Origin: Candidatus Omnitrophota bacterium
Lineage (GTDB): Bacteria > Omnitrophota > Gorgyraeia > Zapsychrales > Zapsychraceae
Direction: 5' to 3'
Length of the DNA: 64,000 nt
Assembly (NCBI GenBank): GCA_020429915.1
Contig: JAGQKV010000002.1
Span: forward strand, 256,061-320,060
Part shown: positions 23,383 through 43,308 of the stretch, piece by piece
How positions within the stretch are numbered: position 1 is the stretch's first letter
Layout of the letters: the number at the start of each line of letters is the position of its first letter
Made by a program: the position numbers and the translations under genes
Notes under the pieces: generated by a model
What the model was told of the DNA's origin: nothing
What the model saw: the letters and a program-made list of their open reading frames with translations, nothing else
Database searches by the model: none

Positions 23383-24687
23383 ATGAACGGACTGGCTAAG
23401 AAGTATTTTTCCAAGGCCGACAAAATCGTCTTTCTGCAGAAAGGCGACTACCTGTTTCGCAAAGGCGAGCAGAACAACAATCTGTATCTGCTGCAATCCG
23501 GCCGCATGAAGGGCTTCGACCCCCAGGATCAGGGAGAGTTCTTTGAGGCCGAAAGCGGCGATTTTATCGGCCTGCACAGTTTCTTCTCGCTGGTGTCGAC
23601 GACGCGCATGAGCCTGATCGCCCTGGAAGACAGCGTGATTCCATACATCAGCAAGGGCGACTTCTCGCATGAAGATGCCGACGAGCTCAACGCGGATTTT
23701 ATGCCGGCCGTCATCTTCATGATGCTCAAGCGCCAGGAACAGGCGCATCAAGCCAGCCTGCGTCACCAAAAGATCCTCAGAGATATGCAGGAAGTCGAAC
23801 GCCTGGCCTCACTGGGGCAGCTTTCGGCGGGTGTGGCGCATGAATTGAACAATGCCATTACCGTTATCAGCCGCGGGAGTGACTATATCATTCAACAGGT
23901 CCTGGACCAGCTCAAGTGCAACTCTTTTGAAACCGAGATGATCAATGCCGGTCTCAGCCAGGGCCGGTATGTGTCCAGCGCCGAGGCCCGGAAAGTGGCC
24001 CGGGACCTTAAGAAATTACATCCCTCTTTTTCTGACGCGAAATTGCGTGATTACGCCCGCACCGGAATGGGCGAACGTCTGGCCAGCCAGCCGCTGGAAA
24101 CCGCCCAACGCGCCTTTAACCTGTGGAACCTTGGCGCTTCTTTGTATGACCTACAGTTGGCTGTGCAGCAGTCCGAGCACGTGATCAACTCGATGCGCAG
24201 CCTGGCCTCCACCAATGTCATCCGGCAGGCCGGTTGCGATATCAACAGCAGTATCCGCCACGCCGTATCATTGCTGAGCAATCCGTTGAAGAAAGTGACA
24301 CTTGACCTTCGCCTCGGCGAGATTCCCACGGTGTTCGGGAATTCCGCGGAGTTGTGTCAGATTTGGACCAATATCATGAAGAATGCCGCAGACGCCATGG
24401 CGGGTCAGTTGCAGAAGGATTCTCTGCTCACGGTGGCCACCGATGCTCCTGACGGCTACGTTCGGGTACGGATCAGTGACACCGGTCCGGGCATCCCGGA
24501 CGAGATTATCGATGAGATATTTAAACCGCACGTGACCACCAAAAAAACCGGCCAGACCTTCGGCCTCGGCCTGGGTCTGACCATTGTTCATAAAATCGTA
24601 AAACGTTATGACGGTGACATGAGCGTTGAAAGTTCCCCGGAGGGAACGACATTCACCGTGACAATACCATTCGGAGCAACCCTATGA
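23383..24687 (+). CDS. soluble sensor histidine kinase with N-terminal cyclic-nucleotide-binding (CAP-effector) domain
   Basis: 434 aa; cNMP-binding-like N-terminal ~130 aa, HisKA (LSAGVAHELNNAITVI) and HATPase_c (GLGLGLTIVHKIV); no TM helices. Confidence 0.8.
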   Translation: MNGLAKKYFSKADKIVFLQKGDYLFRKGEQNNNLYLLQSGRMKGFDPQDQGEFFEAESGDFIGLHSFFSLVSTTRMSLIALEDSVIPYISKGDFSHEDADELNADFMPAVIFMMLKRQEQAHQASLRHQKILRDMQEVERLASLGQLSAGVAHELNNAITVISRGSDYIIQQVLDQLKCNSFETEMINAGLSQGRYVSSAEARKVARDLKKLHPSFSDAKLRDYARTGMGERLASQPLETAQRAFNLWNLGASLYDLQLAVQQSEHVINSMRSLASTNVIRQAGCDINSSIRHAVSLLSNPLKKVTLDLRLGEIPTVFGNSAELCQIWTNIMKNAADAMAGQLQKDSLLTVATDAPDGYVRVRISDTGPGIPDEIIDEIFKPHVTTKKTGQTFGLGLGLTIVHKIVKRYDGDMSVESSPEGTTFTVTIPFGATL

Positions 24688-25172
24688 AAAAAGCCCATAT
24701 CATCCTTATCGACGATCAAATCGACGTCCTCTCCGCCCTCCTGCAGGATCTCAAACCGTTCCGGGAGCGTTTCATCCTTGATGACTGTCAATCGGCTGAC
24801 GAGGCCTATGAATTAATGGAAGAACTCGAGGTGTCGGGTGAACAAATTGCCCTGATCATTTCCGACCACATCATGGCCAACAAAAACGGTATCGAGCTGT
24901 ATGCCGATCTGGCCCATGACCAGCGTTTTGAAGACGTTCGCAAGATCCTGATTACCGGTCAGGCCAGTCATGAAGACACCATCGACGCCATCAACAATGC
25001 CTCCATTGACTATTATATTAGCAAGCCATGGAGCATTGAAGAACTTCACAAAGTCGTCCGGAAGATGATCACCCACTGGATTTTTGATCACGGACTGAAC
25101 CACAAAGACTATGAAGGGATGATCGACACGGACGTTTTGCTGAAACGCAGCAAGGCGGCCGGTGACCGCTAA
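24684..25172 (+). CDS. response-regulator receiver-domain protein
   Basis: 162 aa; CheY-like receiver domain (DDQIDVL...ISDHIMANKNG...ISKPW), short C-terminal extension without a DNA-binding domain; overlaps the histidine-kinase stop by 4 nt. Confidence 0.75.
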   Translation: MKKAHIILIDDQIDVLSALLQDLKPFRERFILDDCQSADEAYELMEELEVSGEQIALIISDHIMANKNGIELYADLAHDQRFEDVRKILITGQASHEDTIDAINNASIDYYISKPWSIEELHKVVRKMITHWIFDHGLNHKDYEGMIDTDVLLKRSKAAGDR

Positions 25173-25233: not shown

Positions 25234-25605
25234 TTACTTGCTGCCCTTCATCGAGCCGTGGGACATGTCATCCCCCTTCATGCTTCCGTGATGATCTCCC
25301 ATCATTTTTATATATTTTGACATCTGCTCTTCGTTAAGGATGGACTTCAACGTGTCCATATACTCCTTATCCGCGGCGGCAATCTTGTCCATTTTAGTCT
25401 GCTTGGCGGCATCCATTTTGGCGGCCTGGTCTTCGCTCAGACCCAGCTTGTGATGCCATTTGTCCATGTGCGCGGTCATTTTCTTGTCTTTTTTCATGAC
25501 CTTGGTATCGTCATCCCCGACCCCGCAAACCCCGCAATGCGCGTGGGCCGTTCCGCCGGCCATGATCAGACTGCCGACGATCATGACTATTATTTTCCGT
25601 TTCAT
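25234..25605 (-). CDS. periplasmic Spy/CpxP/ZraP-family-like protein with HCGVCG and His/Met-rich C-terminus
   Basis: 123 aa; signal peptide; two LTXXQ-like motifs (LSEDQ, LNEEQ); HxxxHH and GDHHGSMKGDDMSHGSMKG metal-binding-like tail. Confidence 0.55.
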   Translation of the reverse strand: MKRKIIVMIVGSLIMAGGTAHAHCGVCGVGDDDTKVMKKDKKMTAHMDKWHHKLGLSEDQAAKMDAAKQTKMDKIAAADKEYMDTLKSILNEEQMSKYIKMMGDHHGSMKGDDMSHGSMKGSK

Positions 25606-26143: not shown

Positions 26144-26836
26144 TCAGGATAGTCCTTGCAGTTGTTCGAAAGCTTTGATGATCAGAAGCACATGCCGGAC
26201 TTCGGTGGTGTTCCGGAAGCGTTCGATCAGATGCGGTATATGAAGCAATTTTGCGATTTGGGCCACCATACGCATATGCATATACGGTGACGGCGCGCAT
26301 GGCACGAACATCAAATGGACTTTGTGCCCGTCTGTAGCTCCGAAGTCGATTCCGCAGGCCGAACGGGCGATAATCAACTTCGGAGTGCGAAAAAGCCGAG
26401 CGTTCGGGAATCGTGAGTGCGGAATGGCCACTCCGCGGCTGATCACTGTAGGTTGCAGGGTTTCACGACGCTCCAACTCCAGGTAAAATTCCTCGTAAGA
26501 AGTGGCTGCCCCGGCCGCGACGGCCAGCTTGGCCAGACGGGAAAGCGCCTTGTTCCGTGAGCCGGCCTCGCAATGCAGATCGATCAGCGTTTCGTCGGTA
26601 AGGTGTGATAGGGGAATCGGGTGGTCCGCTGAATGGATAAGCATGTCCAGATCCTGGTCCGGGGACTCTACAATCGTTTGTTGCAGCCGCAGGTCCGCGA
26701 CCGCCAGGGGTAAGAACTCCTGCTCGTCCCTGATTCCGCGACCGCCGGAGGTGGCTTCCGTTACCGGCGCGCGATGCTCGTGGAGACGAATATAGTCCGC
26801 CAATTCGCGGATGGTCATAATGGCATTGATCTTCAT
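26144..26836 (-). CDS. PTS EIIA type-2 (PtsN-like) domain protein with N-terminal putative HTH
   Basis: 230 aa; C-terminal EIIA-2 domain with His motif (GVAIPHSR); N-terminal ~50 aa resembles excisionase/MerR-type HTH (MTIRELADYIRL). Confidence 0.65.
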   Translation of the reverse strand: MKINAIMTIRELADYIRLHEHRAPVTEATSGGRGIRDEQEFLPLAVADLRLQQTIVESPDQDLDMLIHSADHPIPLSHLTDETLIDLHCEAGSRNKALSRLAKLAVAAGAATSYEEFYLELERRETLQPTVISRGVAIPHSRFPNARLFRTPKLIIARSACGIDFGATDGHKVHLMFVPCAPSPYMHMRMVAQIAKLLHIPHLIERFRNTTEVRHVLLIIKAFEQLQGLS

Positions 26837-26900: not shown

Positions 26901-27521
26901 TTACTTCAGTTGGCTGATGCGGCCCGGTGGCCAGTAAATCCATTCGGCGCGCCCGATGATGTTTTTCTCGGGTACGAATCCCCAGTAACGGCTGTCGGCA
27001 CTTGAGGCGCTGTTATCTCCCAGGACATACACCTGCCCCTCCGGTACCGTGACGGACTTTTTTTCATCACTGAGTGAGCCCATATTAAAATAGTGCTGAC
27101 CGGCAATACGCGGTTCGTCCAGTTGCCGGTCATTGACGTAAATATGTCCGTCCTTTATACGGACGGTTTCACCGCCGAAAGCGATTAGGCGCTTGATAAA
27201 GTCGCGTGAGGGATCCACGGGGTAGTCAAATACGATGATGTCCCCCCGTTCGGGTTTTCCGAAGCCCGGCAAACGGTACTCGGTTAAAGGTACCCGCCCT
27301 CCGTACCGTAGTTTATTGACGATCAACCGGTCTCCGATTTTGAGCGTCGGGTGCATCGAACCGCTCGGGATTTTGAAGGGCTGGACCAGGAATGAGCGGA
27401 TGAGTAAGGCCAAACCAACCGCGACCACCAGGGTTTCCGCCCATTCCCGAATCCACTTCCTTACTTTCGGAGGCACGCGCGCTATTGTCGCGCAGTAAAT
27501 TTGTCCCTTCTTATTTAGCAT
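26901..27521 (-). CDS. lepB: signal peptidase I
   Basis: 206 aa; N-terminal TM helix, catalytic Ser box SGSMHPTL, Lys box and GDNSASSADSRYWG box. Confidence 0.9.
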   Translation of the reverse strand: MLNKKGQIYCATIARVPPKVRKWIREWAETLVVAVGLALLIRSFLVQPFKIPSGSMHPTLKIGDRLIVNKLRYGGRVPLTEYRLPGFGKPERGDIIVFDYPVDPSRDFIKRLIAFGGETVRIKDGHIYVNDRQLDEPRIAGQHYFNMGSLSDEKKSVTVPEGQVYVLGDNSASSADSRYWGFVPEKNIIGRAEWIYWPPGRISQLK

Positions 27522-27552: not shown

Positions 27553-28167
27553 TTACGCCTTTTTGGGGATGCTGATCACCAGCCGGTCCCCGTTACGAGA
27601 GGTTTGCATTTTTTCCGTGTCGGCATCCGACGGCAACTGGACCGTGCGCATGAAACTGCCGAAGCTTTGCGATTTCATGAAGGCCTCCGGACCGGTCTCC
27701 TCTTTATCCTGCGACTGTTGACCGCTGATCGTCAGCGTTTGATCATGTATGGAGATATCGATCTTGTCCCGGTCGTATCCCTGGATGTCGAAGGTTATTT
27801 TGTAACCGGTGTCTGTTTCGTCCAGGTTGAATGAATTGTCGAAGACCATGCTGTTTCGGAACATGCCGGATCCCGCCGCGCTAAAGCCGGGGTTTGTAAA
27901 CGCATGACGAAACAAGCGGTTCATTTCGGCCTGCATGCGATCCATTTCGGCCAGAGGATCCCAACTGTTCTGATTTGGCGTGGCCAGCGGCGTCTGACCG
28001 ATCTGCGCGGGCGTGGAGGCCTCCAACTGCTCTACCTTTTCCTGCAACGCGGCTATTTGGGCTTGCAGGTCTTCAATGGTTGCGTCGGCGGCGAGGGCGG
28101 GTGAACCGGTCACGGATATCGCGGCCACGGCCGCCAAAAGGGAAATCAACAGGTTTGTCGCTTTCAT
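27553..28167 (-). CDS. Hsp20/alpha-crystallin-family small heat-shock protein with Sec signal peptide (predicted periplasmic)
   Basis: 204 aa; clear signal peptide (AISVTGSPALA/AD), coiled-coil segment, then the alpha-crystallin domain (DETDTGYKITFDIQGYDRDKIDISIHDQTLTISG...SFGSFMRTVQLP...GDRLVISIPK). Confidence 0.75.
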   Translation of the reverse strand: MKATNLLISLLAAVAAISVTGSPALAADATIEDLQAQIAALQEKVEQLEASTPAQIGQTPLATPNQNSWDPLAEMDRMQAEMNRLFRHAFTNPGFSAAGSGMFRNSMVFDNSFNLDETDTGYKITFDIQGYDRDKIDISIHDQTLTISGQQSQDKEETGPEAFMKSQSFGSFMRTVQLPSDADTEKMQTSRNGDRLVISIPKKA

Positions 28168-28553
28168 GATTTCACCTCCTGCTTATGGGGTTTATATTGG
28201 GTTTGATACAAGGCCCGATCAATCTTATGCAACAAGACATCGATGCCTTCGGATTTGTCAAAATAGTCCGTTGCCGCTTCCAAAAGCCGGCGTTGGTCGT
28301 CCACGGGATAAACACTCGCCACGATGACCGGAATCATGCTGTGAAAGCAGCTCAACACTTCATACAGCGTGTCGCCGTTGGGTTCGCCGATGTTGATGTC
28401 CAGCAGGACCAAGTCGATGCGGTCCAGTTTCATCTGTTCGCGGGCATCCACGACATTTCCCGCCTCAAGAACCCTGAACCCGCGAGGCTCAAGAAACCGG
28501 CGGTATATCCTGCGGATCCGGGCTTCATCTTCCACAATCAGAATGGTGCGCAT
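28164..28553 (-). CDS. single-domain response regulator (CheY-like receiver)
   Basis: 129 aa; ILIVEDE...LVLLDINIGEPNG...KS(E/P) receiver motifs; ATGA overlap with the Hsp20 gene. Confidence 0.8.
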   Translation of the reverse strand: MRTILIVEDEARIRRIYRRFLEPRGFRVLEAGNVVDAREQMKLDRIDLVLLDINIGEPNGDTLYEVLSCFHSMIPVIVASVYPVDDQRRLLEAATDYFDKSEGIDVLLHKIDRALYQTQYKPHKQEVKS

Positions 28554-28746
28554 CGCTATTCTCCTTTTTGGCAGCCTTGGGCCGGGGTTGTTGACTGAAC
28601 GACCAGCTTTTCCTGGTCACCGGACGGTTATCCGGTCGGGGGCAGGCCCCGTTTTCACTTCTAGGTATACCCGAATCAGGATCAAAGGACGGTTAAAATA
28701 AGATTAGAATTTTCTTATCTTGGGTGGGGGGCGCTGATCGTGCGGC

Positions 28747-30216
28747 TCAGGTAAGGACGGGAAGTTCGACAGTGAACGTCGTACCTTTCCCTAAGGTGCT
28801 GGTAACATTGATATTGCCGTTATGAGCCTTGGCGATGGACTGGGCGATGTTCAGTCCCAGCCCGGTGCCGGATTCCTGCGTATCGTCAGCTCTGGGAACG
28901 CGAAAGAATTTTCGGAAAATATTGCGCAGATCCTCTTCCGAGATCCCCGGGCCCGTATCGGCAATAACCACACGGCAGGTTTGGCCCTGGCGGTGCAGTG
29001 AGACGCGCACCGATTCGCCGGCCGCGATATACTTGATCGCGTTACCGATGATATTGTGAAACAGACGGCGCAAGTGGACCTTATCCGCTTCCACACGGAT
29101 ATCCTCCGTTGGGATATCAAAAGTGATCACGATTTTCTTGGGTTCCGCGAGGATACGGGATTGCTCCGCGATTTCATCCATAAGCGCCGTCAGGCTGATG
29201 TCTTCGAACTGGAAGATATCGGGACGGTAATCCAGTTTGGCCAGCAGCAACAGGTCCTTGACCACTTTGATCATATGGTCGATGACCTCCAGACAGTCGG
29301 ACAACACCTTTTGATATTCGGCAGGAGTCTTCTCACTGTCGAGGGCAAGTTCGATCTCGCCCCGCAGCACGGCCAGCGGGGTTTTCAGTTCATGTGCGAC
29401 ATGGGAATTGAATTCACTGACGTGACCGAAGGAAGTCTCCAGTCGCTTAATCATGACGTTAAAAGACTGGATTAGCTCATGCATCTCCGCATCGACGGTT
29501 TTTTCCGGGATGCGCGCTCCGAGGTCTTTGTGTGTGATACGGTTGGCCATGTCCACGACTTCCCGGACCGGTTTCAATGACTCACGCGTGAAATAGCTTC
29601 CCACAAAACTGGTTCCCGCCAGGAACACCAGGATGGCCAGCGTCAGGAACAGTCCTAGCCGGCCGAGGACCGAATGAATATTGTCCTCCGAGGTGCCGAT
29701 CTGGACCGTCAGCCGGATCTGTCCCAGCGATACCGGTAAATTGATCATCCGTAGTCTCAGCGCCGCGTCACTAAATGAACGATAGTGCAGGGCGGTCAAG
29801 TCCGAAGGGGTCGCCGGCCCGAACAGGCGGGCGATATCGGCTGTATAGTTGTGCGAACTGAAGAGCGTTTGCCCGCGGGCATTCATGATGTTGATATAGT
29901 CATTCTTCAGATTCAGAACTTCCAGCTGGGATTTCCAAATATCATCGACGATCATACGGCGGTCGGCCGCTGCGTACTCGCTGTGCAAAAGATCCAGCAT
30001 CGTGGCGATGGGATGGCTGCGGCCGCGTTCCACGCGTTCGTAGGCCGCCAGGATACTGGCGACTTCCTCCGCCTTGATTTTCAACTCCTCGTCCAGGTCA
30101 TGGTAGAGAATGTTGTAGACGCTTCCGTAAATGACGGATCCAAAAAGGACAAGGATGGCCGCCAGAATAACCGAGTAAAGAATGCTGGCCTTGAAACGGA
30201 TCGAATTGAAGCGCAT
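28747..30216 (-). CDS. sensor histidine kinase (CusS/BaeS/CpxA-like architecture)
   Basis: 489 aa; TM-periplasmic(~150 aa)-TM-HAMP-HisKA(HVAHELKTPL)-HATPase_c(GTGLGLNIAQSIAKAHNG); 1-nt gap after the OmpR-type regulator gene. Confidence 0.85.
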   Translation of the reverse strand: MRFNSIRFKASILYSVILAAILVLFGSVIYGSVYNILYHDLDEELKIKAEEVASILAAYERVERGRSHPIATMLDLLHSEYAAADRRMIVDDIWKSQLEVLNLKNDYINIMNARGQTLFSSHNYTADIARLFGPATPSDLTALHYRSFSDAALRLRMINLPVSLGQIRLTVQIGTSEDNIHSVLGRLGLFLTLAILVFLAGTSFVGSYFTRESLKPVREVVDMANRITHKDLGARIPEKTVDAEMHELIQSFNVMIKRLETSFGHVSEFNSHVAHELKTPLAVLRGEIELALDSEKTPAEYQKVLSDCLEVIDHMIKVVKDLLLLAKLDYRPDIFQFEDISLTALMDEIAEQSRILAEPKKIVITFDIPTEDIRVEADKVHLRRLFHNIIGNAIKYIAAGESVRVSLHRQGQTCRVVIADTGPGISEEDLRNIFRKFFRVPRADDTQESGTGLGLNIAQSIAKAHNGNINVTSTLGKGTTFTVELPVLT

Positions 30217-30217
30217 A

Positions 30218-30892
30218 TCAGGATTCCTTTAAGACGTAGCCGGCCCCGCGAACGGAATGAATAAGTTTGTGATCAAAGTCCGCATCGATCTTTTTGCGCA
30301 GATAATTAACATAAACGTTTATCACATTGGAAAAGCTGTCGAAATCGTCATTCCACACATGTTCGGATATCATGGTGCGGGTCACCACCTGTCCGGCGTT
30401 CAGCATCAGATATTCCAGCAGTGCGAATTCCGTGCTTGTGAGCTCAATTTCCCGGTCCCCCCGAGTCACTTTCCGGGTAATCTGATTCAATTGCAGGTCG
30501 GCTACCTTAAGTACCGGGCTGGCTGCGTCCGTATTGCGCCGGATGAGAGCGCGGATGCGGGCGAGAAATTCGGCGAAGACAAACGGTTTCGTCAGATAAT
30601 CGTCGGCCCCGGCGTCTAGTCCCGAGATCTTGTCTTCCACGTCGTCGCGGGCCGTCAGCATCAGGATGGGGGTGCCGAGTTTCAATTTGCGCAACTGCCG
30701 GCATATGTACAAACCGTCTTTCCCCGGCAGCATGATGTCGAGAACGATTAAATCATAAGGGACTTCGCGGGCCTGAAACAAGCCGCTGTCGCCGTCTGCG
30801 GCCACGTCCACGGCATACCCCTTTTCTTTAAGGCCCCGCTTGATAAAGCTGGCAAGCTTCTTTTCGTCTTCAACGACTAAGATGCGCATCAA
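30218..30892 (-). CDS. OmpR/PhoB-family DNA-binding response regulator
   Basis: 224 aa; receiver domain (ILVVEDE...LIVLDIMLPGKDG) and winged-helix output domain (VTRTMISEHVW...YVNYLRKKID). Confidence 0.9.
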   Translation of the reverse strand: MMRILVVEDEKKLASFIKRGLKEKGYAVDVAADGDSGLFQAREVPYDLIVLDIMLPGKDGLYICRQLRKLKLGTPILMLTARDDVEDKISGLDAGADDYLTKPFVFAEFLARIRALIRRNTDAASPVLKVADLQLNQITRKVTRGDREIELTSTEFALLEYLMLNAGQVVTRTMISEHVWNDDFDSFSNVINVYVNYLRKKIDADFDHKLIHSVRGAGYVLKES

Positions 30893-30948: not shown

Positions 30949-31689
30949 TTAGGGATGATTGCGTATATCTTCGAGTTTTTTTCGGAGCTGTTCAGCCGCC
31001 AGTTGTTGCGCTTCGCGGAATTCCTGTTGAATGGCGAGGCGCTCCTCCGGAGAGTTCGCCGTTTGCATACGGCTTTGGAATTCTTCCATGGCAGCTTGCT
31101 GAGAGCGGACATGCTCCTGGGAAAGGATTTGCATGTCTTGGGCGCGCTGCAGCTGGACTTCCGCCCGGTCATACTGTTGTTGCACCCGTTCGCGCTCTTG
31201 CTGCAGGCGCTGCCGTTGATAGGCTGTGTCGGCATTCTGGACCGAACCGTTCAGATGCTGTTCCCTGACGGCGAAGATTTCCTCTTGCATCTGCCGCGCG
31301 GCCTCCTGCTGGTTCTTCTGGTACCGGTTGCGTATGGCCTGCTGTTCCTCCGGCGAGGCGGTATTACGGATTTCCTCCTGGAAAGATATGGCAGCCTGCT
31401 GCTGTTTTAGGTAATGAGTCTGGGCGACTGCCTGCAGTTTTTCCGCCAACTCCCGCTGACGTTCATAGAGCTCTCTTTGGGCATTCTCAACCGGGTTGGT
31501 GTCATCAATCAGCGGCGCGGTCTCGTCAGGGGTCAACACCCGTGTTTCCGCGGCCCGCGTTTGCAACTGGCGGATCATCCCTTCCCGCTGGCGCTGGGCG
31601 TCCCGGTAACGTTCCATGGCGGGGTCCTGCGCCAGCGCGTTGCCGATCGGAAATAAGCAGGCGCCAAGGCAATATGCGGCGATCTTCAT
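30949..31689 (-). CDS. periplasmic Gln/Arg/Glu-rich coiled-coil protein with repeated SPEEQ/SPEER (LTXXQ-like) motifs; CpxP/Spy-like
   Basis: Start trimmed to MKIAAYCLGACLF (signal peptide; the track ORF extends to 31731); internally repetitive, e.g. NTASPEEQQAIRNRYQKNQQEAARQMQEE and TANSPEERLAIQQEFREAQQLAAEQ; first gene of the regulator-kinase operon. Confidence 0.55.
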   Translation of the reverse strand: MKIAAYCLGACLFPIGNALAQDPAMERYRDAQRQREGMIRQLQTRAAETRVLTPDETAPLIDDTNPVENAQRELYERQRELAEKLQAVAQTHYLKQQQAAISFQEEIRNTASPEEQQAIRNRYQKNQQEAARQMQEEIFAVREQHLNGSVQNADTAYQRQRLQQERERVQQQYDRAEVQLQRAQDMQILSQEHVRSQQAAMEEFQSRMQTANSPEERLAIQQEFREAQQLAAEQLRKKLEDIRNHP

Positions 31690-31798
31690 ATACAACTTGT
31701 TGCGGGATATAGCGTATTTACGCATGATCATTTGAAAGGCTCTTGTGTTAGTGACTTTAGCAGAATTATACTCCGGGATGGGGCCGATGGCAAGCCGG

Positions 31799-34973: not shown

Positions 34974-36905
34974 TTAGATCTTCATGCCTTTTTTGCCGAG
35001 CACGAACACCGTCACCGCCAGGAAAACCAACTCGAACAAAACATAGGTGATCAGTCCCATGGCAATGCCGGAGGTGAATCCGTAGGAATGCAGTCCGACG
35101 CTGAGCAGGTTGACACCGAACCACGCCCACATCACAACAATGAGCGTAAGGATAGAGCCGACGGCGACACCCAACGGGTGTATAAGTTTGGCCAATCGCA
35201 TATGAAACAGTAATGCCACCCACAGCACGATCATCAGCGCGCCGTTCTCTTTGGGGTCCCATCCCCAAAAACGTCCCCATGACTGATCGGCCCATATCCC
35301 TCCCAGCGCGGTGCCGAGAAAGGTCGTGGTGAGTCCGAAACCGAGAATGCCCAAGGTATTGTTCAGCGTGGCATTCAGGCGCTTGGTGTTCTTGGAATCA
35401 AACAGGGCCTGCAGGACATAAATATGCCCCATGATCCCACCCACGCAGCATCCGGCATAACCGATGGTAATGGTAATCACGTGAGTACTCAGCCAGAAAT
35501 TCGAATCAAGTACGGCCACCAGGACTTTCAGGGTGTCACCGTCCCCACCGAATTTCGAGGCAATTGTCAAAAAGATCAGACCACTGACGCTGGCAATGGT
35601 CAGGCCCAGCGAGTTGCGGTTGACCCACTCCAGAATAAATCCGAGAATAACGGCTATCAGCCCGACGAAAATGAATGTCTCAAACAGATTGCTGACTGGC
35701 GGGCGGGCCATGATCAAAATGCGCAGGATTTGTGCGATCAGATGAGGAACGAAACCGGCCACAGCAAGGACCGCCGCCGTACGTGACAGCCAGGGTCGGG
35801 AAGAAAGCAGGCTGAACAACAGAAACATAAAGGCCAAACCGTAACCCAGCTTGGCCCACAAAAATCCGTTGAAGTCATTGTAAAACAATTCCAGTCCGAA
35901 CCGGTCGTATTGCTCCTTCTCTTTCGGTGACAGCCGCTTGCCGACAGAATCCAGATAGGCCTTGGCTGCAATATTAAACTGCAACTGCTCGCCGTTCCAG
36001 TAGTACACGGTCATGTTGCGAATGTGTGTAATCTCGTCGAAGTAAGCCTCCTGGTCCACGTTCAGCCGCATGATGTCCATCGGGCTCAACCAGCTTTCCT
36101 CTTCATATCTGACGGTGGGAATGACACCGAACGGCGCGTTGCCGTAATGTTCGGTCCAGAAATACATCGCGTTGATCAATCGCGCCACGGTCTTACCTTC
36201 TTCACTCCACTGCTGCACATCCCCGCCGCGCAGGACCATGGCCGCGGCTTCCAGTTTGTCGGTGACCACATACAGGTCATAAAAACTAAATTTGTCCCGG
36301 TCCGTGGCCAGCCCAAGTTTCTCTTTAATTTCCGGAGACGTCAAATCAAAGTCCGGATGCGGAAAGGCGTAGGCAAAGGCACCCGAAATACGGATGTAAT
36401 AGCCGAGGTTCGAGTAAACGCGCAGGATCTCCCGTTCGACGGCGGAAAGTTCTTTTTCATCGATGTCCATGAGGACCTCGGCCAACTCTTTTATCTTGTC
36501 GTAACCCGGTTCCAGCTGACGCCATGAGTAACGCCGGCGTTTTTCCGGATCCACTTTTATCGCCTCGAGGATTTCCGGATTATTAATCAGAAAGATCTGG
36601 TCGCGATAGGTCGTCCGGGGTGCGAAAATAAACCGGGCGAACCACTCCAGCGCGCTCTCCTTACCGTATGAACGACGCCCAGACAAACGCAGCAGGAAGC
36701 TCTTGGCAAAGGTTTCCATCGGTTTGATGCGACCTTCGTTCAGGACGGGAATCCGGGCAAAGGCTTCAAGGTCATTGACCTTGGTGGGCTTCAGCGTGTC
36801 CAGCGGACAAATGTTCTGGGCCGTGGCGTTCCCGGAATACAGCAGTCCGGTCAGGACGGTCAGAAGCAAAAATCCGTTGCCGAGATTTCGGAGTTTATTT
36901 CGCAT
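34974..36905 (-). CDS. ccsA: cytochrome c biogenesis protein CcsA/ResC (System II), long form with N-terminal periplasmic domain
   Basis: Trp-rich WWD motif (WGRFWGWDPKENGALMIVLW) and conserved His residues in the C-terminal TM bundle; start trimmed to MRNKLRNLG (signal peptide), overlapping the 3' end of ccsB. Confidence 0.8.
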   Translation of the reverse strand: MRNKLRNLGNGFLLLTVLTGLLYSGNATAQNICPLDTLKPTKVNDLEAFARIPVLNEGRIKPMETFAKSFLLRLSGRRSYGKESALEWFARFIFAPRTTYRDQIFLINNPEILEAIKVDPEKRRRYSWRQLEPGYDKIKELAEVLMDIDEKELSAVEREILRVYSNLGYYIRISGAFAYAFPHPDFDLTSPEIKEKLGLATDRDKFSFYDLYVVTDKLEAAAMVLRGGDVQQWSEEGKTVARLINAMYFWTEHYGNAPFGVIPTVRYEEESWLSPMDIMRLNVDQEAYFDEITHIRNMTVYYWNGEQLQFNIAAKAYLDSVGKRLSPKEKEQYDRFGLELFYNDFNGFLWAKLGYGLAFMFLLFSLLSSRPWLSRTAAVLAVAGFVPHLIAQILRILIMARPPVSNLFETFIFVGLIAVILGFILEWVNRNSLGLTIASVSGLIFLTIASKFGGDGDTLKVLVAVLDSNFWLSTHVITITIGYAGCCVGGIMGHIYVLQALFDSKNTKRLNATLNNTLGILGFGLTTTFLGTALGGIWADQSWGRFWGWDPKENGALMIVLWVALLFHMRLAKLIHPLGVAVGSILTLIVVMWAWFGVNLLSVGLHSYGFTSGIAMGLITYVLFELVFLAVTVFVLGKKGMKI

Positions 36906-38064
36906 GCGGCGCTCCCTGCCGTTGACGTTTGCGTGTGTTGACAGCGGCCATGGCAAAGTGAATGACCAAACCGGCGAACGTCACAAAGGTTGAAATGTAG
37001 GGAAGGACACGTCCGTGATTCCGGACCACGGCCAGCGTCGAACTTTCATTGCGGAACTGGTCGACGGAAAATGATGACTGATAAAAGGTGTACTCCCGGT
37101 GCCGCAACGGATTATTCATGGTGATCGGCTTCTCCCGCCACTGCCCCCCGGTGTCGACGGCAACCTTGCTTTTGAAGCTGCGTGCCGTTTGCGTCCCCGG
37201 ATGCTCTTCCTTGATGAATTCCACCAGCTTGAGCGTAAACGGCATCGGGTAGCGTTTCAAGCGCAGGCTCAAATGATACGTCTTCCCACCGGCCTCGATC
37301 GGCGTCGGAATTCTTTCGGCACCGTAGAGTATGACGTGTGAACTGCCTTCGGGTGTTGTGACCTCCAGAATAATTCCCGGGGTATTGCGTTCCGGTTCCT
37401 TTTCCAATTTGGCGGCCTCAATTTTTTGCACGCCCGAGGCATTCAGATAGCGGCTGTCTCCGTCATTGACCGCATAGGCGTTGGCATTGCGATGATACTC
37501 GAGTAACTTGATAATGATCCCGCTGTCCTCCATCGGCAGCGGCTGGTTGATCTTCAAACGGGCGACATCGACTCCGGTCACCGTGCGGATTACTTTACCG
37601 TCGGTCCGTTCGGGCGGGGCCTCCCAGATTGCCAGCTCCCAATCATGAAAAGCCGATGAAACATTCGTGGCCTGGCCTTCCTTGAGGGTGACATGACTTT
37701 CTTCCGCCGTATTCAGAATCACGTAGCCCGAAACAAAAAACATCAGCAGACCGATATGGATGACAAGGATACCAAAATTTTTCCAACTGTAGACAAAGCG
37801 AATCAGCATAACCGCCAGGACGTTGATAAACAGGATCCACATAACCAGTTGCCCGCCGGGAAAGGGGATGAAGCCCAGAACCAGGAAATAAAAGGAATGA
37901 AAGAATCTTTCCTGGGCGAGATACAGTCCGCTCTGGACCTGCGCGATTGTCCCCCACAGAGTAAGCAGGAACAGCAAGAAAATACCCAGACAGGTGATTC
38001 TCAGCGAAGCCAGGGCTTGAAGAAGTTTGATTTTGCGTAATTTTTGTCGGAACTTTGAAGTCAT
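36895..38064 (-). CDS. ccsB: cytochrome c biogenesis protein CcsB/ResB (Ccs1)
   Basis: 389 aa; N-terminal TM helices, large periplasmic domain, C-terminal TM helix; classic ResB layout immediately upstream of ccsA. Confidence 0.8.
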   Translation of the reverse strand: MTSKFRQKLRKIKLLQALASLRITCLGIFLLFLLTLWGTIAQVQSGLYLAQERFFHSFYFLVLGFIPFPGGQLVMWILFINVLAVMLIRFVYSWKNFGILVIHIGLLMFFVSGYVILNTAEESHVTLKEGQATNVSSAFHDWELAIWEAPPERTDGKVIRTVTGVDVARLKINQPLPMEDSGIIIKLLEYHRNANAYAVNDGDSRYLNASGVQKIEAAKLEKEPERNTPGIILEVTTPEGSSHVILYGAERIPTPIEAGGKTYHLSLRLKRYPMPFTLKLVEFIKEEHPGTQTARSFKSKVAVDTGGQWREKPITMNNPLRHREYTFYQSSFSVDQFRNESSTLAVVRNHGRVLPYISTFVTFAGLVIHFAMAAVNTRKRQRQGAPHAK

Positions 38065-38897
38065 TATTTTTCCGCTATGGAAAGGATCAGATCGCGAAAG
38101 TCAGGCAATCGGGCGCTGATGGCCGCCTTGCCTCCTGTCATCTTGACGAATATCTGTGACCGGCCGCGGTCGATGATCGCGGCGATCATGCTGGGTGCGT
38201 CGGCCGGCGCGTCCGATTGCAGGGTGGTCAGGTCGACCAGCGTCAAGCTCAGCCCGGACGCGGTCGTGAGTTGTTCCTGTTCGGCCAGAAAACGCTGTAG
38301 ATCTGCATCGTTGACTGAAATATTGACTTGCCTTAACCAACGACCGACATTGGCCTGAAGACCGCCCGCGCTCCCACCAAGACTGATGATCGAAGTCTCG
38401 GTCGGTCCGACGCCTCCCGTCGTGGTGAACGTCGCGAGCCGCAAACCGCTTCCCTTCTGTTCCGACCAGCCGGCCGGTGTTTGCCAGACTAACGGGGAAC
38501 GGTCGACCGACTGTTCCAGTTCGGGGGTGACCGGCATCGTGCTCATGCTCATACCGCTCCCTGAATTCGCCGAAGATTGAGCCTGCAGTCCGGCGTGAAT
38601 GGCGTCATCCGGCATGGTGCGGCCGGCCAGGCCCGCGTGGATCTCGTCCTGGGGCATGTCGCCGGATCCCATGAGCCCGGAATGAATGGCATCTTGCGGC
38701 ATTTTATTTGGATCCAGCCCGGCATGGATGGCGTCCTGGGGCATGGATTTGTCCCCGGAGCGCATGGCATGCGGAGGAATCTGCGAACGGTCGGATTCGA
38801 TAAAGATCTCTTCGTAGTGCCGTGTGAGGGTGGGCTGGCCGCATCCGGATACAAGAAAGACAGCGACCAATGCAATATTTCGTCGAAAATTAGTCAT
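38064..38897 (-). CDS. lipoprotein with four tandem MPQDAIHAGL-type repeats
   Basis: 277 aa; lipobox VFLVSGC; repeats MPQDAIHAGLDPNK/MPQDAIHSGLMGSGD/MPQDEIHAGLAGRT/MPDDAIHAGLQAQ; C-terminal ~150 aa Gly/Thr-rich domain; stop abuts ccsB start. Confidence 0.65.
   Translation of the reverse strand: MTNFRRNIALVAVFLVSGCGQPTLTRHYEEIFIESDRSQIPPHAMRSGDKSMPQDAIHAGLDPNKMPQDAIHSGLMGSGDMPQDEIHAGLAGRTMPDDAIHAGLQAQSSANSGSGMSMSTMPVTPELEQSVDRSPLVWQTPAGWSEQKGSGLRLATFTTTGGVGPTETSIISLGGSAGGLQANVGRWLRQVNISVNDADLQRFLAEQEQLTTASGLSLTLVDLTTLQSDAPADAPSMIAAIIDRGRSQIFVKMTGGKAAISARLPDFRDLILSIAEK
38560..38770 (-). repeat. tandem ~42-45 nt coding repeats (4x) encoding the MPQDAIHAGL motif
   Basis: plus-strand copies ...GCCCGCGTGGATCTCGTCCTGGGGCAT / GCCCGGAATGAATGGCATCTTGCGGCAT / GCCCGGCATGGATGGCGTCCTGGGGCAT...; diverged at synonymous sites. 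Confidence 0.6.
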
Positions 38898-38907
38898 GGA
38901 ATTAAAA

Positions 38908-40425
38908 TCAGTTGCCGGTGTGACAGTCCGTACAGCTCATGTCTTCCCACAATCCGTCGTCCTCAAACGGATGAGTAAAGCCGAGCCCCCGGGTATCCCG
39001 TTCAAGATTGTCGGGCGGTCCCTGCTCTATAATGGAGTGACAGACAGTACAGTCTTTGGTGATGACCGCTCCGTCACTGCTGGTGTGCTCTCCGTCGTGG
39101 CAGCGGAAACATCCGGGAGCCACGAGATGGCCGATATTGTCCGGGTAGGCATCCCACCGGGCTTTCATTTCAGGGAACATGCTATTCTGGAACATTTTTT
39201 GCACGGATGCAACTGCTTTCTTGACCTGAGGCTCCCGGGTGGCAAAATTATCTCCCAATTCCTCACGGTAATGGGTTGTCAACTCCGTGTCAATCGTCTC
39301 CAAGGCTTCCGTTTCGCTTGTGTATTCCTTGGATAGCAATTCCATGGCTTTGCTTTTGATGCCCGGCAATTCAGGGTCGATCTCATTTGAGGCCATGGCC
39401 TGATTGAGGAGGCGGCTGGGATAGGGATAACGGTGTGTGGGGCGGTTGTGGCAATCCATACAATCCATTTTATGAATAACTTCCGCGGGCGGAGGCGTAT
39501 CCTTCCATTTGGAATCTTCAGAGGTGTAAACGGTCTCTTTTCCGTCTTTGTCCACGCTCTTCACCCACGTGACTTCCTGCAGACGCTCATCCTCGGCGGC
39601 AAAATAAATATCGTTGTCAATGTACATGTGCTTGTGAATTCCGCTGCCTTTTTCCGGCGTGCCGCCGACGTGAACCAGCATCCGTAGCAACCAGCTCGGA
39701 TGTTCGCTGTCGTATGCCGTGAAATATGTCTTGTTCATCTCGACGGAGGTGTACGATTTGCCCGGCCAATGGCAACGTTCACAAGTCTCCTCAGCGGGGC
39801 GCAGATTATGGACAGGGGTAGCGATCGGTCGGGAATAGTCGCCTTTGATCGTATGGTACACCTGCCGAATCCCCGAGATCTTGGCGCGGACATACCACTC
39901 CGCCCCTTCTCCGATGTGGCACTCCACGCACTTGACCCGGGCATGCGGGGAATTGATGTAGGTGGTGTGTTCGGGTTTCATCACATCGTGGCACATCAGA
40001 CCGCAAAAGGCCACCGACTCGGTGTACTGATAAGCCTTGTACGTGCCGATGGCCGTCATGATCAGCAGGATACCTGTGCCGAGGATAAAGACAAATATCG
40101 CATTGCGGTGGGACGGAACACTCGGGTCGATCCTGATCGGCCCCGGTTTGGACGCGGATTTCCCTTTCAGAACAGCCCGGCGTTTCAACAAGGCGCCCAC
40201 CGGAATCAGAAGCAGGCCGATGATCAGGAAAACGGGCAGAATCGCGTAGGTCAGTATCCCCAGATAGAGATTCTGACCGTGCGAGAAGAATTCAAAGGCG
40301 AACATCAACAACTCGACGATAAAAAAGAAAATCGCAATCAGAACGCCGATATACGTCGTCCAGTTGTAGAAATAGACCGAGAACTTTTGTTTGGGTGTCG
40401 GCACGTCCGCCGGTTGCTTACTCAA
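38908..40425 (-). CDS. inner-membrane multiheme c-type cytochrome, ImcH-like (7 heme motifs)
   Basis: 505 aa; two N-terminal TM helices; heme sites CGLMCH(CX3CH), CVECH, CERCH, CMDCH, CFRCH, CTVCH, CTDCH. Confidence 0.75.
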   Translation of the reverse strand: MSKQPADVPTPKQKFSVYFYNWTTYIGVLIAIFFFIVELLMFAFEFFSHGQNLYLGILTYAILPVFLIIGLLLIPVGALLKRRAVLKGKSASKPGPIRIDPSVPSHRNAIFVFILGTGILLIMTAIGTYKAYQYTESVAFCGLMCHDVMKPEHTTYINSPHARVKCVECHIGEGAEWYVRAKISGIRQVYHTIKGDYSRPIATPVHNLRPAEETCERCHWPGKSYTSVEMNKTYFTAYDSEHPSWLLRMLVHVGGTPEKGSGIHKHMYIDNDIYFAAEDERLQEVTWVKSVDKDGKETVYTSEDSKWKDTPPPAEVIHKMDCMDCHNRPTHRYPYPSRLLNQAMASNEIDPELPGIKSKAMELLSKEYTSETEALETIDTELTTHYREELGDNFATREPQVKKAVASVQKMFQNSMFPEMKARWDAYPDNIGHLVAPGCFRCHDGEHTSSDGAVITKDCTVCHSIIEQGPPDNLERDTRGLGFTHPFEDDGLWEDMSCTDCHTGN

Positions 40426-40446
40426 ATACTGATCTCCCGCGGCTTA

Positions 40447-42489
40447 CTACCAGTGATAATTAAAATCAACCCAGGCCACATGCGCAATATAATTACCGAA
40501 CTCCGATACAGAGGTCGTATCGTAATGATAGTACGCATAGTGCGGCTCGACCGACCAGTTTTTGTCCCGGGGAGCGTAGCTCATCGTGACTTCCGCCGTG
40601 TAGTAATCGTTGGATGCGGCCAGCGGCAGAGAGGAACTGGTAAAGTCGTTAAAATTGTCGGTAAACGTCTTGGCCACCGCCGCGGTGATCGACCACTCGT
40701 CCGTCGGCACATAGCTGGTGCTTACCAGCAGGCTTTGTAAGTCCGCGCTGAAACCGGGCAACACCGCCGGACTGGAACTAGATGCTGCCGGCGTGGTCGT
40801 GTTGGCGTCCTGGTAGGTATAAGAACCGTTAACGAATAATTCCTTCATCACCTGAACGAAAATATCATAGGTGAAGGTGTGCGAGCGGAAACGGGTCTCA
40901 ACCGTGTCCGACAGGCCCTGTACGCGGGTCTTGTACTTTTTTCCATTGAACTGGTAGCGCACCGAACTTTGCAACCATTTTAATGGTTTCCAGGTTAATT
41001 TTGTAGTGAATTCATCACCGATAACTTGGAGGGAGTCCACGAATGCGGAATTAATGGCTCCTGACGTATCAACTTCATCATCATAGTCATTATTCTCGTA
41101 CTTTCTCCGAGCCTGGAAGGTGATGTTGTAGAAACGGGACGGAATAATTCGTGTTCCCAGGGTATATTGGGCCTTCTTGGTCTTGGTTTCCGTGACCCGC
41201 TGCCAGTTGAACAGGTAATCGGAATCGCGCTGGATTTCATTGAGGTCGTTGTTCATTTCCGTTAATTCGATATCTCCGTAGATCGAGGCCTTCTCGATAC
41301 CCGTGTACTGAACGGCGAAGTTCTGGCCGAACTGCCAGAGTTTTTCGCGGGACTGGCTGTAATCGGTATCGTCAATAATACCGTCGGGTGTAGCAGGAGA
41401 GTCATCTGAGGGGTAGACTGATTCACCCTTACGCTTCATTAGCTGATTTCTGGACTTGACGGTAAAGCGCAGCGTTTTACTCAATTCGTACATATAGTGT
41501 CCAACAACGGTGTGACTGTCTACTTCATTGTATGCTTGGGCATTTACGATTTGATGTGCAAAACTGAAGTTTGTTGGAACGCCAAATTCATCGGACTCTA
41601 CAATATTCTCCACTTCCTCATTTTCGAGACTTGCATAACGGTATGCCAAATTCAGGTAGGACGTGTCCTCTTCCCCGAACCAGCGGTTGCCTTGGAATGT
41701 GGTGGTAAAGATGTCACTCTCAGGCTTCTGGTTTTGAGCCCTTTTCTTGCGTTGCGATGCGGTTGCTGCGGTGGAGAGCCAACGTTCGTAACGGGTGTTA
41801 TCTGAATCGGTCCGTTCGTAGGTCTGCTCTGCACTGACATTAAACCCGGCGATTTCGGTTCCCCCGCGGACGCCGAAGATATCGACCTTTTCATCAATAC
41901 TTTGATAGGTCGGAGTTATTTCCTTTGCCACGGCGCCCTCCCGGGCCTCCGCCCAATTGAGCCGTGATTTTTCTCCGTCTTTCATATGGTGCTCATACCA
42001 AACGAGCAAAGTAAACTGATCTCCGATCTCCGGAGCGAAAGAGAAAAACAGTGACTGGATATCTAATTCCAAATCGCGGTTTAAATCATTGCTTTGGAGT
42101 GTGGAAAATGGATAAAAGAATCCACCCGAATCATCGTAATACTTGCGGAAGCTTTCGTATACAAATTGAAAAGCCCCGATACCGGGATTGGAATATTTAA
42201 CATTTGCTTCATGATCGTTGTCATCCGGAAGACTATGACCTTCAAAAGTAAGCATGCTGTCGTCTTCGTACTCCTTGCTGAAGAAGAGGTCTTTGATCCC
42301 TCCCGAGTAACCTTCGTCCATCCAGTGGTGGGCACGGAATTTCTTCTCGTCGCCTTTTACTTCCACATTCTTAGCTGGAGTAACGGTGATGGAAAACTCT
42401 TCGCCTTCCGCCGCCTCCGCCGGGGAATTCGGCAATACCGCGGCCCAGCCGATCAGTCCGAACAATAAGAGGAATGAAAATTTTCTCAT
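40447..42489 (-). CDS. large outer-membrane beta-barrel (porin-like) protein
   Basis: 680 aa; signal peptide (LLFGLIGWAAVLPNSPAEA); Tyr/Trp/Phe-rich alternating pattern throughout; C-terminus ...VAWVDFNYHW (aromatic terminal residue). Confidence 0.65.
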   Translation of the reverse strand: MRKFSFLLLFGLIGWAAVLPNSPAEAAEGEEFSITVTPAKNVEVKGDEKKFRAHHWMDEGYSGGIKDLFFSKEYEDDSMLTFEGHSLPDDNDHEANVKYSNPGIGAFQFVYESFRKYYDDSGGFFYPFSTLQSNDLNRDLELDIQSLFFSFAPEIGDQFTLLVWYEHHMKDGEKSRLNWAEAREGAVAKEITPTYQSIDEKVDIFGVRGGTEIAGFNVSAEQTYERTDSDNTRYERWLSTAATASQRKKRAQNQKPESDIFTTTFQGNRWFGEEDTSYLNLAYRYASLENEEVENIVESDEFGVPTNFSFAHQIVNAQAYNEVDSHTVVGHYMYELSKTLRFTVKSRNQLMKRKGESVYPSDDSPATPDGIIDDTDYSQSREKLWQFGQNFAVQYTGIEKASIYGDIELTEMNNDLNEIQRDSDYLFNWQRVTETKTKKAQYTLGTRIIPSRFYNITFQARRKYENNDYDDEVDTSGAINSAFVDSLQVIGDEFTTKLTWKPLKWLQSSVRYQFNGKKYKTRVQGLSDTVETRFRSHTFTYDIFVQVMKELFVNGSYTYQDANTTTPAASSSSPAVLPGFSADLQSLLVSTSYVPTDEWSITAAVAKTFTDNFNDFTSSSLPLAASNDYYTAEVTMSYAPRDKNWSVEPHYAYYHYDTTSVSEFGNYIAHVAWVDFNYHW

Positions 42490-42504
42490 GATGAGCTCCT
42501 TCTA

Positions 42505-43272: not shown

Positions 43273-43308
43273 AAGGCGGCTCCTTTCTACGTTTCTCCTG
43301 GACAATAT

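Follow-up and report, generated by a model that had tools for sequence, protein, structure and literature searches.

The window analyzed here, the whole 64-kb stretch of DNA from a Candidatus Omnitrophota bacterium, carries on its minus strand a gene for a small heat-shock protein (sHSP) that appears to be exported from the cytoplasm. In the textbook view, sHSPs respond first to stress in the cytosol and leave the later rescue of their clients to ATP-driven Hsp70/ClpB, and the periplasmic holdases known from bacteria (Spy, Skp, SurA, and HdeA/B) have folds unrelated to those of sHSPs. The original prediction for this locus was that an sHSP with a Sec signal peptide, encoded next to the signal peptidase LepB in an envelope-stress cluster, would serve as a periplasmic holdase. 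The gene coincides exactly with a single open reading frame (ORF) at 27553 to 28167 in the ORF list, which starts with ATG and encodes 204 amino acids followed by a stop codon. The product matches the Pfam family HSP20 (E = 2.4e-14), and its AlphaFold2 (AF2) model has a mean predicted local distance difference test (pLDDT) score of 80.5.

If the start codon were misassigned and translation began 3' of the hydrophobic segment, this would be an ordinary cytoplasmic sHSP. We found nothing in favor of such a start, and the start-codon scan rules it out at the sequence level. A perfect Shine-Dalgarno sequence, AGGAGG (28175 to 28180, minus strand), lies 7 nt 5' of the ATG, and the ATG itself (28165 to 28167) shares the tetranucleotide ATGA with the TGA of the upstream response regulator gene. 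This overlap, which is identical in the loci L005 and L006, implies translational coupling of the sHSP to the upstream gene. Ten in-frame ATG, GTG, or TTG codons lie further downstream up to codon 100, and at none of them does the match to the Shine-Dalgarno sequence go beyond 4/6. The earliest internal ATG is codon 75, and a start there would remove the conserved WDP motif and a leucine zipper that is as conserved as the crystallin domain. Signal peptide features are also kept by 64 of the 65 relatives in our alignment, which are 27 to 65% identical to the window sHSP. The N-terminal signal thus withstands the scan for a better downstream start, and we regard a cytoplasmic product of a misassigned gene as extremely unlikely.

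The predicted signal peptide spans aa 1 to 26 (MKATNLLISLLAAVAAISVTGSPALA; 28090 to 28167, minus strand) and was delimited by rule-based analysis of the protein and 64 relatives, together with the AF2 model. Its n-region contains Lys2, its hydrophobic core runs for 14 residues from L6 to V19, and its c-region holds the helix breakers Gly21 (-6) and Pro23 (-4) ahead of Ala24-Leu25-Ala26|Ala27, with Ala at both -3 and -1. The N-terminus reads MKATNLLISLLAAVAAISVTGSPALA|ADATIED, in which signal peptidase I (SPase I) is predicted to cut after Ala26 (...PALA|AD) and the mature protein would have an acidic start. AF2 models a helix at residues 3 to 20 followed by a loop at 21 to 30. A Tat or lipoprotein signal is ruled out, given that aa 1 to 26 lack a twin-arginine pair and the whole protein lacks the Cys of a lipobox.

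Across the 65 aligned relatives, the signal peptide region is weakly conserved in sequence (mean entropy, 2.86) and constant in character. The n-region has a net charge of +1 to +4 in 64 of them, the uncharged run has a median length of 18 residues, and Pro is often found at -4 or -5. The script that picked cleavage sites favors those obeying the -3/-1 rule, and with it Ala was found at -1 in 55 relatives and Ala or Val at -3 in 46. Neither the distance to the zipper nor the charge asymmetry was imposed by this script; the site lies 6 to 8 residues ahead of the first zipper Leu in 49 of the 65, and the 15 residues after it carry a mean charge of -1.9. In a wider survey that comprised the window protein and 156 retrieved relatives, a crude test found a signal-peptide-like N-terminus in 134 of the 157 sequences. 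The proposed Sec signal with an AxA cleavage site is therefore borne out, as its n-, h-, and c-region features are present in the window protein and kept across relatives, and the window sHSP is very probably exported.

We considered that the N-terminus could instead be an uncleaved signal anchor, which would tether the sHSP on the outer face of the cytoplasmic membrane, where it would guard membrane-proximal clients, for example, nascent exported proteins at Sec and LepB. Adjacency to LepB in close relatives would suit action at the translocon, and a sister subfamily, which includes members from Campylobacterota metagenome-assembled genomes (MAGs), has a longer, transmembrane (TM)-like N-terminus without an AxA site. 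However, the core of the window protein is just 14 residues long, and the Gly/Pro and Ala-Leu-Ala that come next are what marks a signal peptide that is cleaved. The prevalence of Ala at -1, at a constant spacing from the zipper, and the acidic character of the residues after the site also speak against an anchor, which we consider quite improbable.

Zipper, crystallin domain, and missing C-terminal tail

Behind the predicted cleavage site lies a leucine zipper (aa 31 to 51, IEDLQAQIAALQEKVEQLEAS; 28015 to 28077, minus strand), which was recognized from column statistics and coincides with an AF2 helix at residues 31 to 51. It comprises three heptads, with I31, I38, and V45 at the a positions and L34, L41, and L48 at the d positions, giving a hydrophobic spacing of 3-4-3-4-3. 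These six positions are 69 to 100% I/L/V/M/F in the 65 aligned relatives; the d positions are 97 to 100% Leu, and a positions 38 and 45 are 100% of the I/V type. The positions in between are about 0 to 5% hydrophobic, except for positions 40 (29%) and 47 (11%). This segment had been described as a coiled-coil spacer, and the coiled coil is upheld, but a three-heptad zipper whose conservation equals that of the crystallin domain (entropy of 1.84 versus 1.97) is not a spacer. According to the Harbury rules, beta-branched residues at a combined with Leu at d form the classic parallel-dimer pattern, and we infer that the zipper favors a parallel dimer.

The zipper is followed by a disordered, Pro/Thr/Gln-rich linker of variable length (aa 52 to 67; 27967 to 28014, minus strand), which has a pLDDT below 50 at residues 56 to 65 and the highest column entropy of any region (3.44). 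The next segment is the conserved sHSP N-terminal helix (aa 68 to 91, WDPLAEMDRMQAEMNRLFRHAF; 27895 to 27966, minus strand), modeled by AF2 as a helix at residues 71 to 91 and with an entropy of 1.96. This stretch ("WDP...MNRLF") aligns with the equivalent pre-domain stretch of chloroplast Hsp21.

The alpha-crystallin domain (aa 114 to 204, ending in ...GDRLVISIPKKA; 27556 to 27828, minus strand) was recognized by Pfam, AF2, Foldseek, and PDB profile searches. Pfam HSP20 (PF00011) matches aa 117 to 203 with 53.7 bits against a cutoff of 20.8, the match ending at profile position 88 of 102, and AF2 places the strands of a beta-sandwich at residues 114 to 202 with a pLDDT of 87 to 97. In the PDB, every one of the top 50 Foldseek matches is an sHSP crystallin domain, and the family profile matches 47 solved sHSP sequences, with Hsp21, Xylella and Xanthomonas HspA, pea Hsp18.1, and wheat Hsp16.9 at the top. 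The domain-end motif F.R...LP....D......nG.L.I..PK is present (in the window protein, FMRTVQLPSDADTEKMQTSRNGDRLVISIPKK), and conservation among the 65 relatives reaches at least 90% at F172, P179, A182, P201, and K202.

The protein ends 3 residues past the "IPK" of beta9, without a C-terminal extension and without the I/V-x-I/V (IxI) motif. This motif docks in the beta4/beta8 groove of a neighboring dimer and is typical of sHSPs but not universal. Among the 156 retrieved relatives, 82 have both a signal peptide and the zipper; 54 of these have 5 or fewer residues after beta9, and 10 have an IxI tail. The description of the alpha-crystallin domain as canonical holds for the domain but not for the protein as a whole, given that the C-terminal extension and IxI motif are missing.

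Ordinary bacterial and plant sHSPs (Xanthomonas/Xylella HspA, wheat Hsp16.9, and Escherichia coli IbpA/IbpB) share with the window protein the beta-sandwich, the domain-end consensus, and the "DPF..M..M...MNR.F" helix, and profile E values against solved sHSPs are 1e-14 to 1e-22. In contrast to these, the window protein adds a signal peptide and a zipper, lacks the C-terminal extension and IxI motif, and is presumably extracytoplasmic, where it would have no DnaK/ClpB for client release. A similar logic, N-terminal targeting of an ordinary sHSP, is found in organelle-targeted sHSPs of plants, namely, Hsp22 of the endoplasmic reticulum class and chloroplast Hsp21 (PDB 5nms/7bzw). No other solved structure matches the sequence as well as Hsp21 does (E = 2e-22), and the match extends to the pre-domain helix. 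The plant organelle sHSPs differ, however, in that they are eukaryotic, reside in compartments with ATP and Hsp70, have an IxI tail, form dodecamers, and lack a zipper. The likeness reflects the bacterial/plant sHSP class and not a common ancestry of the targeting signal.

Distribution of the family and probable links to the envelope

Word-indexed homologue searches returned 7 and 9 proteins, and six relatives found in this way, at 37 to 65% identity, all have the same layout as the window protein. The family was badly undersampled by these searches, and hence we carried out an exhaustive hidden Markov model profile search of 1.84 billion representatives of clusters formed at 50% identity. This search found 32,061 sHSP-like cluster representatives at E ≤ 1e-3 and 126 at E ≤ 1e-30, the latter mostly 190 to 230 aa long and with profile matches that begin within positions 1 to 20. 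By this measure, the clade of the window sHSP comprises at least 126 clusters. Full-length matches in genomes came mostly from Ca. Omnitrophota MAGs, and the one source annotation met for the family was the generic "HSP20 family protein." A bacterial sHSP that bears a signal peptide or is periplasmic was not described in the full-text literature searched, outside of which most subscription journals lie. The exported group, which comes mostly from uncultured bacteria, is apparently undescribed. The nearest leads in the literature, the HSP20-like fold of PilQ and SMb21295 of S. meliloti, turned out not to be such proteins.

One Omnitrophota locus (L019) provides an internal control, as it encodes in order a MerR-type regulator (99 aa), two ordinary Hsp20 paralogues (157 and 139 aa), and a member of the family. 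The two paralogues have hydrophilic N-termini and IxI tails (KRIKIDVK and PRKIEISS); the third sHSP gene product begins with MLKNTLVIFVLAGLLACAVPLWA|EE..., carries the zipper, and ends in ...LPKKQ. Within this one genome, loss of IxI thus goes along with possession of the signal peptide and zipper. L019 is the MerR-Hsp20-Hsp20-sHSP cluster that was scanned, and its ORF-size pattern is shared by L015, L017, and L020 to L023, with an extra, unassigned ORF of about 83 aa ahead of the sHSP in L021 and L023. At a further locus (L027), ClpB lies directly downstream of the exported sHSP. These heat-shock cluster contexts argue for stress regulation of family members.

In bacteria, HtrA proteases carry out quality control outside the cytoplasm, and the association of family members with HtrA, by fusion and by gene adjacency, is therefore an independent pointer to the envelope. 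Two relatives that represent different 50%-identity clusters (P0048, 428 aa; P0116, 420 aa) have the sHSP region of the family fused behind a signal peptide and a protease domain of the HtrA type. The His, Asp, and GNSGG-Ser motifs of their protease domains are intact, and the WDPF helix and crystallin domain replace the PDZ domains. A third HtrA-sHSP fusion is represented by a fragment, P0032. The P0048 gene (L094, 572 to 1858) adjoins genes for BacA, a DD-carboxypeptidase, and a DsbA-like protein. The gene for P0005, which is 42% identical to the window sHSP, lies between two YceI genes and beside an HtrA gene (Trypsin plus PDZ), and a DsbD/CcdA-type gene is found upstream of the sHSP at this locus. 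Together, the fusions and the adjacency suggest a hand-over of clients from holdase to protease. The window sHSP itself differs from the HtrA family in having no protease domain, and no HtrA gene is present in its immediate neighborhood.

These contexts also bear on how far the protein travels, given that a Sec signal peptide specifies only the crossing of the inner membrane. The sHSP could be secreted past the periplasm and reach the cell surface or the medium, where other cells or surface structures may be its targets. Host dependence and an ultrasmall cell size have been proposed for many Omnitrophota, and that the full-length genome matches are nearly all Ca. Omnitrophota MAGs would be in keeping with such a role. 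However, neither the sHSP nor the genes next to it showed a sorting signal, a lipobox, or a link to a secretion system, and the HtrA, DsbD, DsbA, and YceI contexts point to the periplasm. Secretion beyond the periplasm is, in our judgment, very unlikely.

Other architectures were observed among the retrieved relatives. Many of the proteins P0090 to P0156 form the sister subfamily mentioned above, in which the longer TM-like N-terminus consists of about 15 hydrophobic residues followed by [EQ]-[GTS]-x-[YF]-[LI]-[LIFY]. These proteins have neither an AxA site nor a zipper, and their C-terminal tail has the form K-[IV]-x-[IV]. Examples are found at L045 (6001 to 6567, from a Sulfurospirillum sp. 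MAG) and L061 (6001 to 6627, from a Campylobacterales MAG), and the subfamily looks like a set of membrane-anchored sHSPs. Four other proteins (P0053, P0072, P0074, and P0125; about 230 to 260 aa) consist of a signal peptide, a domain of about 90 aa (...YYVGKVVGLN...), and then the sHSP region. The domain of about 90 aa had no Pfam match in P0053 and P0072, the two members scanned.

Neighboring genes and a conserved upstream element

On the minus strand, the sHSP is part of a cluster that encodes, in order, a 260-aa exported protein, an OmpR-family response regulator (RR) (30218 to 30892, 224 aa), a sensor histidine kinase (HK) with HAMP, HisKA, and HATPase domains (28747 to 30216, 489 aa), and, after a 193-nt gap, a single-domain RR (28164 to 28553, 129 aa; Pfam Response_reg), the sHSP, LepB (26901 to 27521), and a protein resembling PTS-EIIA_2 (a phosphotransferase system [PTS] family). 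The RRs and the kinase were assigned by Pfam. No minus-strand terminator-like site was found between the genes of the cluster. LepB is a 206-aa SPase I (Peptidase_S26, E = 3.3e-56; TIGR02227, 174.8 bits versus a cutoff of 47) and is encoded 31 nt downstream of the sHSP. Cotranscription with LepB, as claimed for this locus, is plausible from the short gap and the lack of an intervening terminator-like site, but it is narrow in distribution. The entire arrangement recurs in three metagenomic contigs (L005 to L007; sHSP identity of 62 to 65%), and the sHSP-LepB end is also present in the near-identical contig L093; LepB adjacency is confined to these four close relatives. It is missing in the Omnitrophota and Elusimicrobiota members examined, and LepB is thus ruled out as a general conserved partner.

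The RR-HK-RR-sHSP core, in contrast, is also found in the Ca. Omnitrophota MAGs L013 and L014, without LepB. Identities to the window proteins are 75% for the regulator, 51 to 53% for the kinase, 53 to 57% for the small RR, and 45 to 46% for the sHSP. The gene downstream of the sHSP encodes a CxxCxxCC protein in L014 and phosphoenolpyruvate carboxykinase in L013, and it differs again at other loci. Given that the two-component core persists in these MAGs while LepB is absent, the LepB linkage is, on the synteny seen here, lineage specific and the two-component linkage is older. The single-domain RR is the most widely conserved neighbor and lies directly 5' of the sHSP in L005 to L007, L009, L013, L014, and L016.

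The best NCBIfam match of the kinase is the heavy-metal sensor family TIGR01386 (CztS/SilS/CopS), at 266.3 bits and under the cutoff of 292.55, and that of the regulator is TIGR01387 (CztR/SilR/CopR), at 278.0 bits and under the cutoff of 279.2. The idea of an envelope-stress cluster is only partly borne out, as this pair scores just short of the metal-sensor cutoffs and the two flanking exported proteins match no family. Envelope or metal stress is a plausible theme of the neighborhood.

The first of the flanking proteins is the 260-aa Gln/Glu/Arg-rich product of the first gene of the cluster (30949 to 31731, minus strand), which has the repeated motif SPEE(Q/R)xAI and orthologues in L005 to L007. 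A near-consensus promoter-like site, TTGCCA-17-TATAAT (31793 to 31765), lies ahead of this gene. The second is encoded by a 123-aa ORF (25234 to 25605, minus strand) that has an orthologue in L006 at 65% identity. Its start resembles a signal peptide, and its CGVCG motif and its tail rich in His and Met (...HHGSMKGDDMSHGSMKGSK) are suggestive of metal binding. Neither protein had a Pfam or NCBIfam match at E ≤ 0.01 or a meaningful sequence match in the PDB. A relationship to CpxP, Spy, or ZraP, which was considered from the LTxxQ-like motifs "LSEDQ" and "SPEEQ," was unsupported by the Pfam, NCBIfam, and PDB searches. The sHSP does not match the LTXXQ/CpxP-like profile either and matches HSP20 alone.

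A conserved noncoding element is located 5' of the RR-sHSP pair (28650 to 28730, minus strand), with 28 invariant columns in alignments of six loci. It contains ATAAGAAAATTCTAATCTTATTTTAACC (direct repeats ATTCTAA-N4-ATTTTAA) and the -10-like GGTATACC. The 7-bp direct repeats have an 11-bp spacing, and a -10-like TATAMC comes about 22 bp downstream of them. The other copies are found at L005 (6545 to 6625), L006 (2591 to 2671), L013 (5514 to 5611), L014 (5511 to 5604), and L016 (4895 to 4981), and the six loci represent distantly related genomes, Omnitrophota MAGs included. The geometry of the element is like that of OmpR/PhoB-family operators, and we infer a candidate regulated promoter. A search for box B (GGTATACCTAG) that allowed mismatches was swamped by chance matches. 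An Rfam scan of the window found one tRNA only, with no RNA thermometer and no rRNA that could serve as a direct taxonomic marker.

Envelope-sensing two-component systems also control known periplasmic chaperones, with Spy and CpxP under Cpx/Bae and ZraP under ZraSR. We considered that the sHSP could be an exported accessory protein and not a general holdase, acting either as a CpxP-like periplasmic modulator that occupies the sensor domain of the kinase until misfolded proteins or metal titrate it away or as an adaptor for substrate delivery to HtrA. The RR-HK-RR-sHSP module is shared with close relatives and with Omnitrophota MAGs even though sHSP identity to the latter is only 45%, and the sHSP region stands in for PDZ domains, which are substrate- and regulator-binding modules in DegP/DegS, in the HtrA fusions. 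Both observations would fit such a role. Nevertheless, many family members have no two-component system and are found in generic heat-shock clusters or unrelated contexts. The crystallin domain also keeps the general sHSP consensus, and its nearest solved relatives are ordinary holdases. An accessory role is thus unlikely.

Proposed function and remaining features of the window

The reading that we favor, and consider on balance to be probable, is that the window sHSP is a Sec-exported, SPase I-cleaved, ATP-independent holdase of the envelope. The precursor would be exported via Sec and cut by LepB after Ala26, as indicated by sequence rules and conservation. This would leave a mature protein of about 178 aa whose crystallin domain would fold outside the cytoplasm; in a diderm organism, this compartment would be the periplasm. 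The zipper and the crystallin-domain dimer interface would build higher assemblies in place of IxI docking, and the protein would bind unfolding envelope proteins without ATP, as its family membership suggests. Given that there is no ATP-driven refolding machinery outside the cytoplasm, clients would probably be released spontaneously or, as the fusions and adjacency hint, be handed to HtrA/DegP-type proteases. Synteny and the operator-like element suggest that induction probably comes from the adjacent OmpR-type regulator and periplasm-sensing kinase. The proposed job, ATP-free holding in the envelope, is the same as that of Spy, CpxP, ZraP, Skp, HdeA/B, and DegP in its chaperone mode. The window sHSP has no sequence or fold kinship with Spy, CpxP, ZraP, or Skp, however, being a beta-sandwich as opposed to a helical cradle or jellyfish.

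Several points weigh against this holdase model. Export, cleavage, and chaperone activity are deduced from sequence for every family member, and the signal peptide calls come from rule-based scripts and not from SignalP. A three-heptad zipper is short, and its oligomeric state is read only from the pattern of its heptads. In the absence of IxI, the window sHSP may be unable to assemble into large oligomers of the kind with which holdase activity is usually associated, and some sHSPs that lack IxI are poor chaperones. Adjacency to Hsp20 paralogues or ClpB indicates coregulation, which would equally suit a cytoplasmic protein. Finally, the existence of a periplasm is an assumption that draws on relatives and on the exported cytochromes, and no outer-membrane marker was found in the 64-kb window. 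The many exported proteins that the window encodes, among them multiheme cytochromes, ResB/CcsA, and ZnuA, speak for such a compartment.

A broader and more tentative proposal is that the window sHSP belongs to an unrecognized extracytoplasmic sHSP clade of at least 126 clusters centered on Omnitrophota, Elusimicrobiota, and their relatives. In this clade, the zipper would replace IxI, triage by holding and degradation with HtrA would proceed without ATP, the proteins would have their own periplasm-sensing two-component switch, and anchored and fused variants would belong to the same radiation. We consider this possible, though the odds are somewhat against it. A natural, widespread clade of exported sHSPs would give envelope proteostasis a new class of chaperone and would reveal how a crystallin domain functions when it has neither ATP-dependent partners nor an IxI tether. 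Direct hand-over from holdase to protease has a ready-made model in the HtrA-sHSP fusions, and the family would provide a handle on stress biology in uncultured phyla, Omnitrophota among them. Periplasmic expression of aggregation-prone recombinant proteins could also benefit from an sHSP scaffold that is competent for secretion.

Additional features were observed elsewhere in the window. A block of genes for multiheme c-type cytochromes (NapC/NirT-like and c7/c3-like, with paired CXXCH motifs) occupies 34974 to 43305 on the minus strand, together with ResB and CcsA-type genes for cytochrome c assembly. No Pfam match was obtained for two ORFs of about 680 aa (40447 to 42489 and 11070 to 13118). 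A second signaling pair lies at 23383 to 25172 on the plus strand, where a 434-aa ORF overlaps that of a 162-aa response regulator. The pair is also present in L006, and the precomputed Pfam assignment of the L006 counterpart of the 434-aa ORF is cNMP_binding plus HATPase_c. The window encodes two PTS-EIIA_2 proteins, neither in an obvious PTS context. One (26144 to 26836, minus strand) lies directly 3' of LepB, a synteny kept in L005 to L007, and the other (10026 to 10952, minus strand) is fused to CBS.

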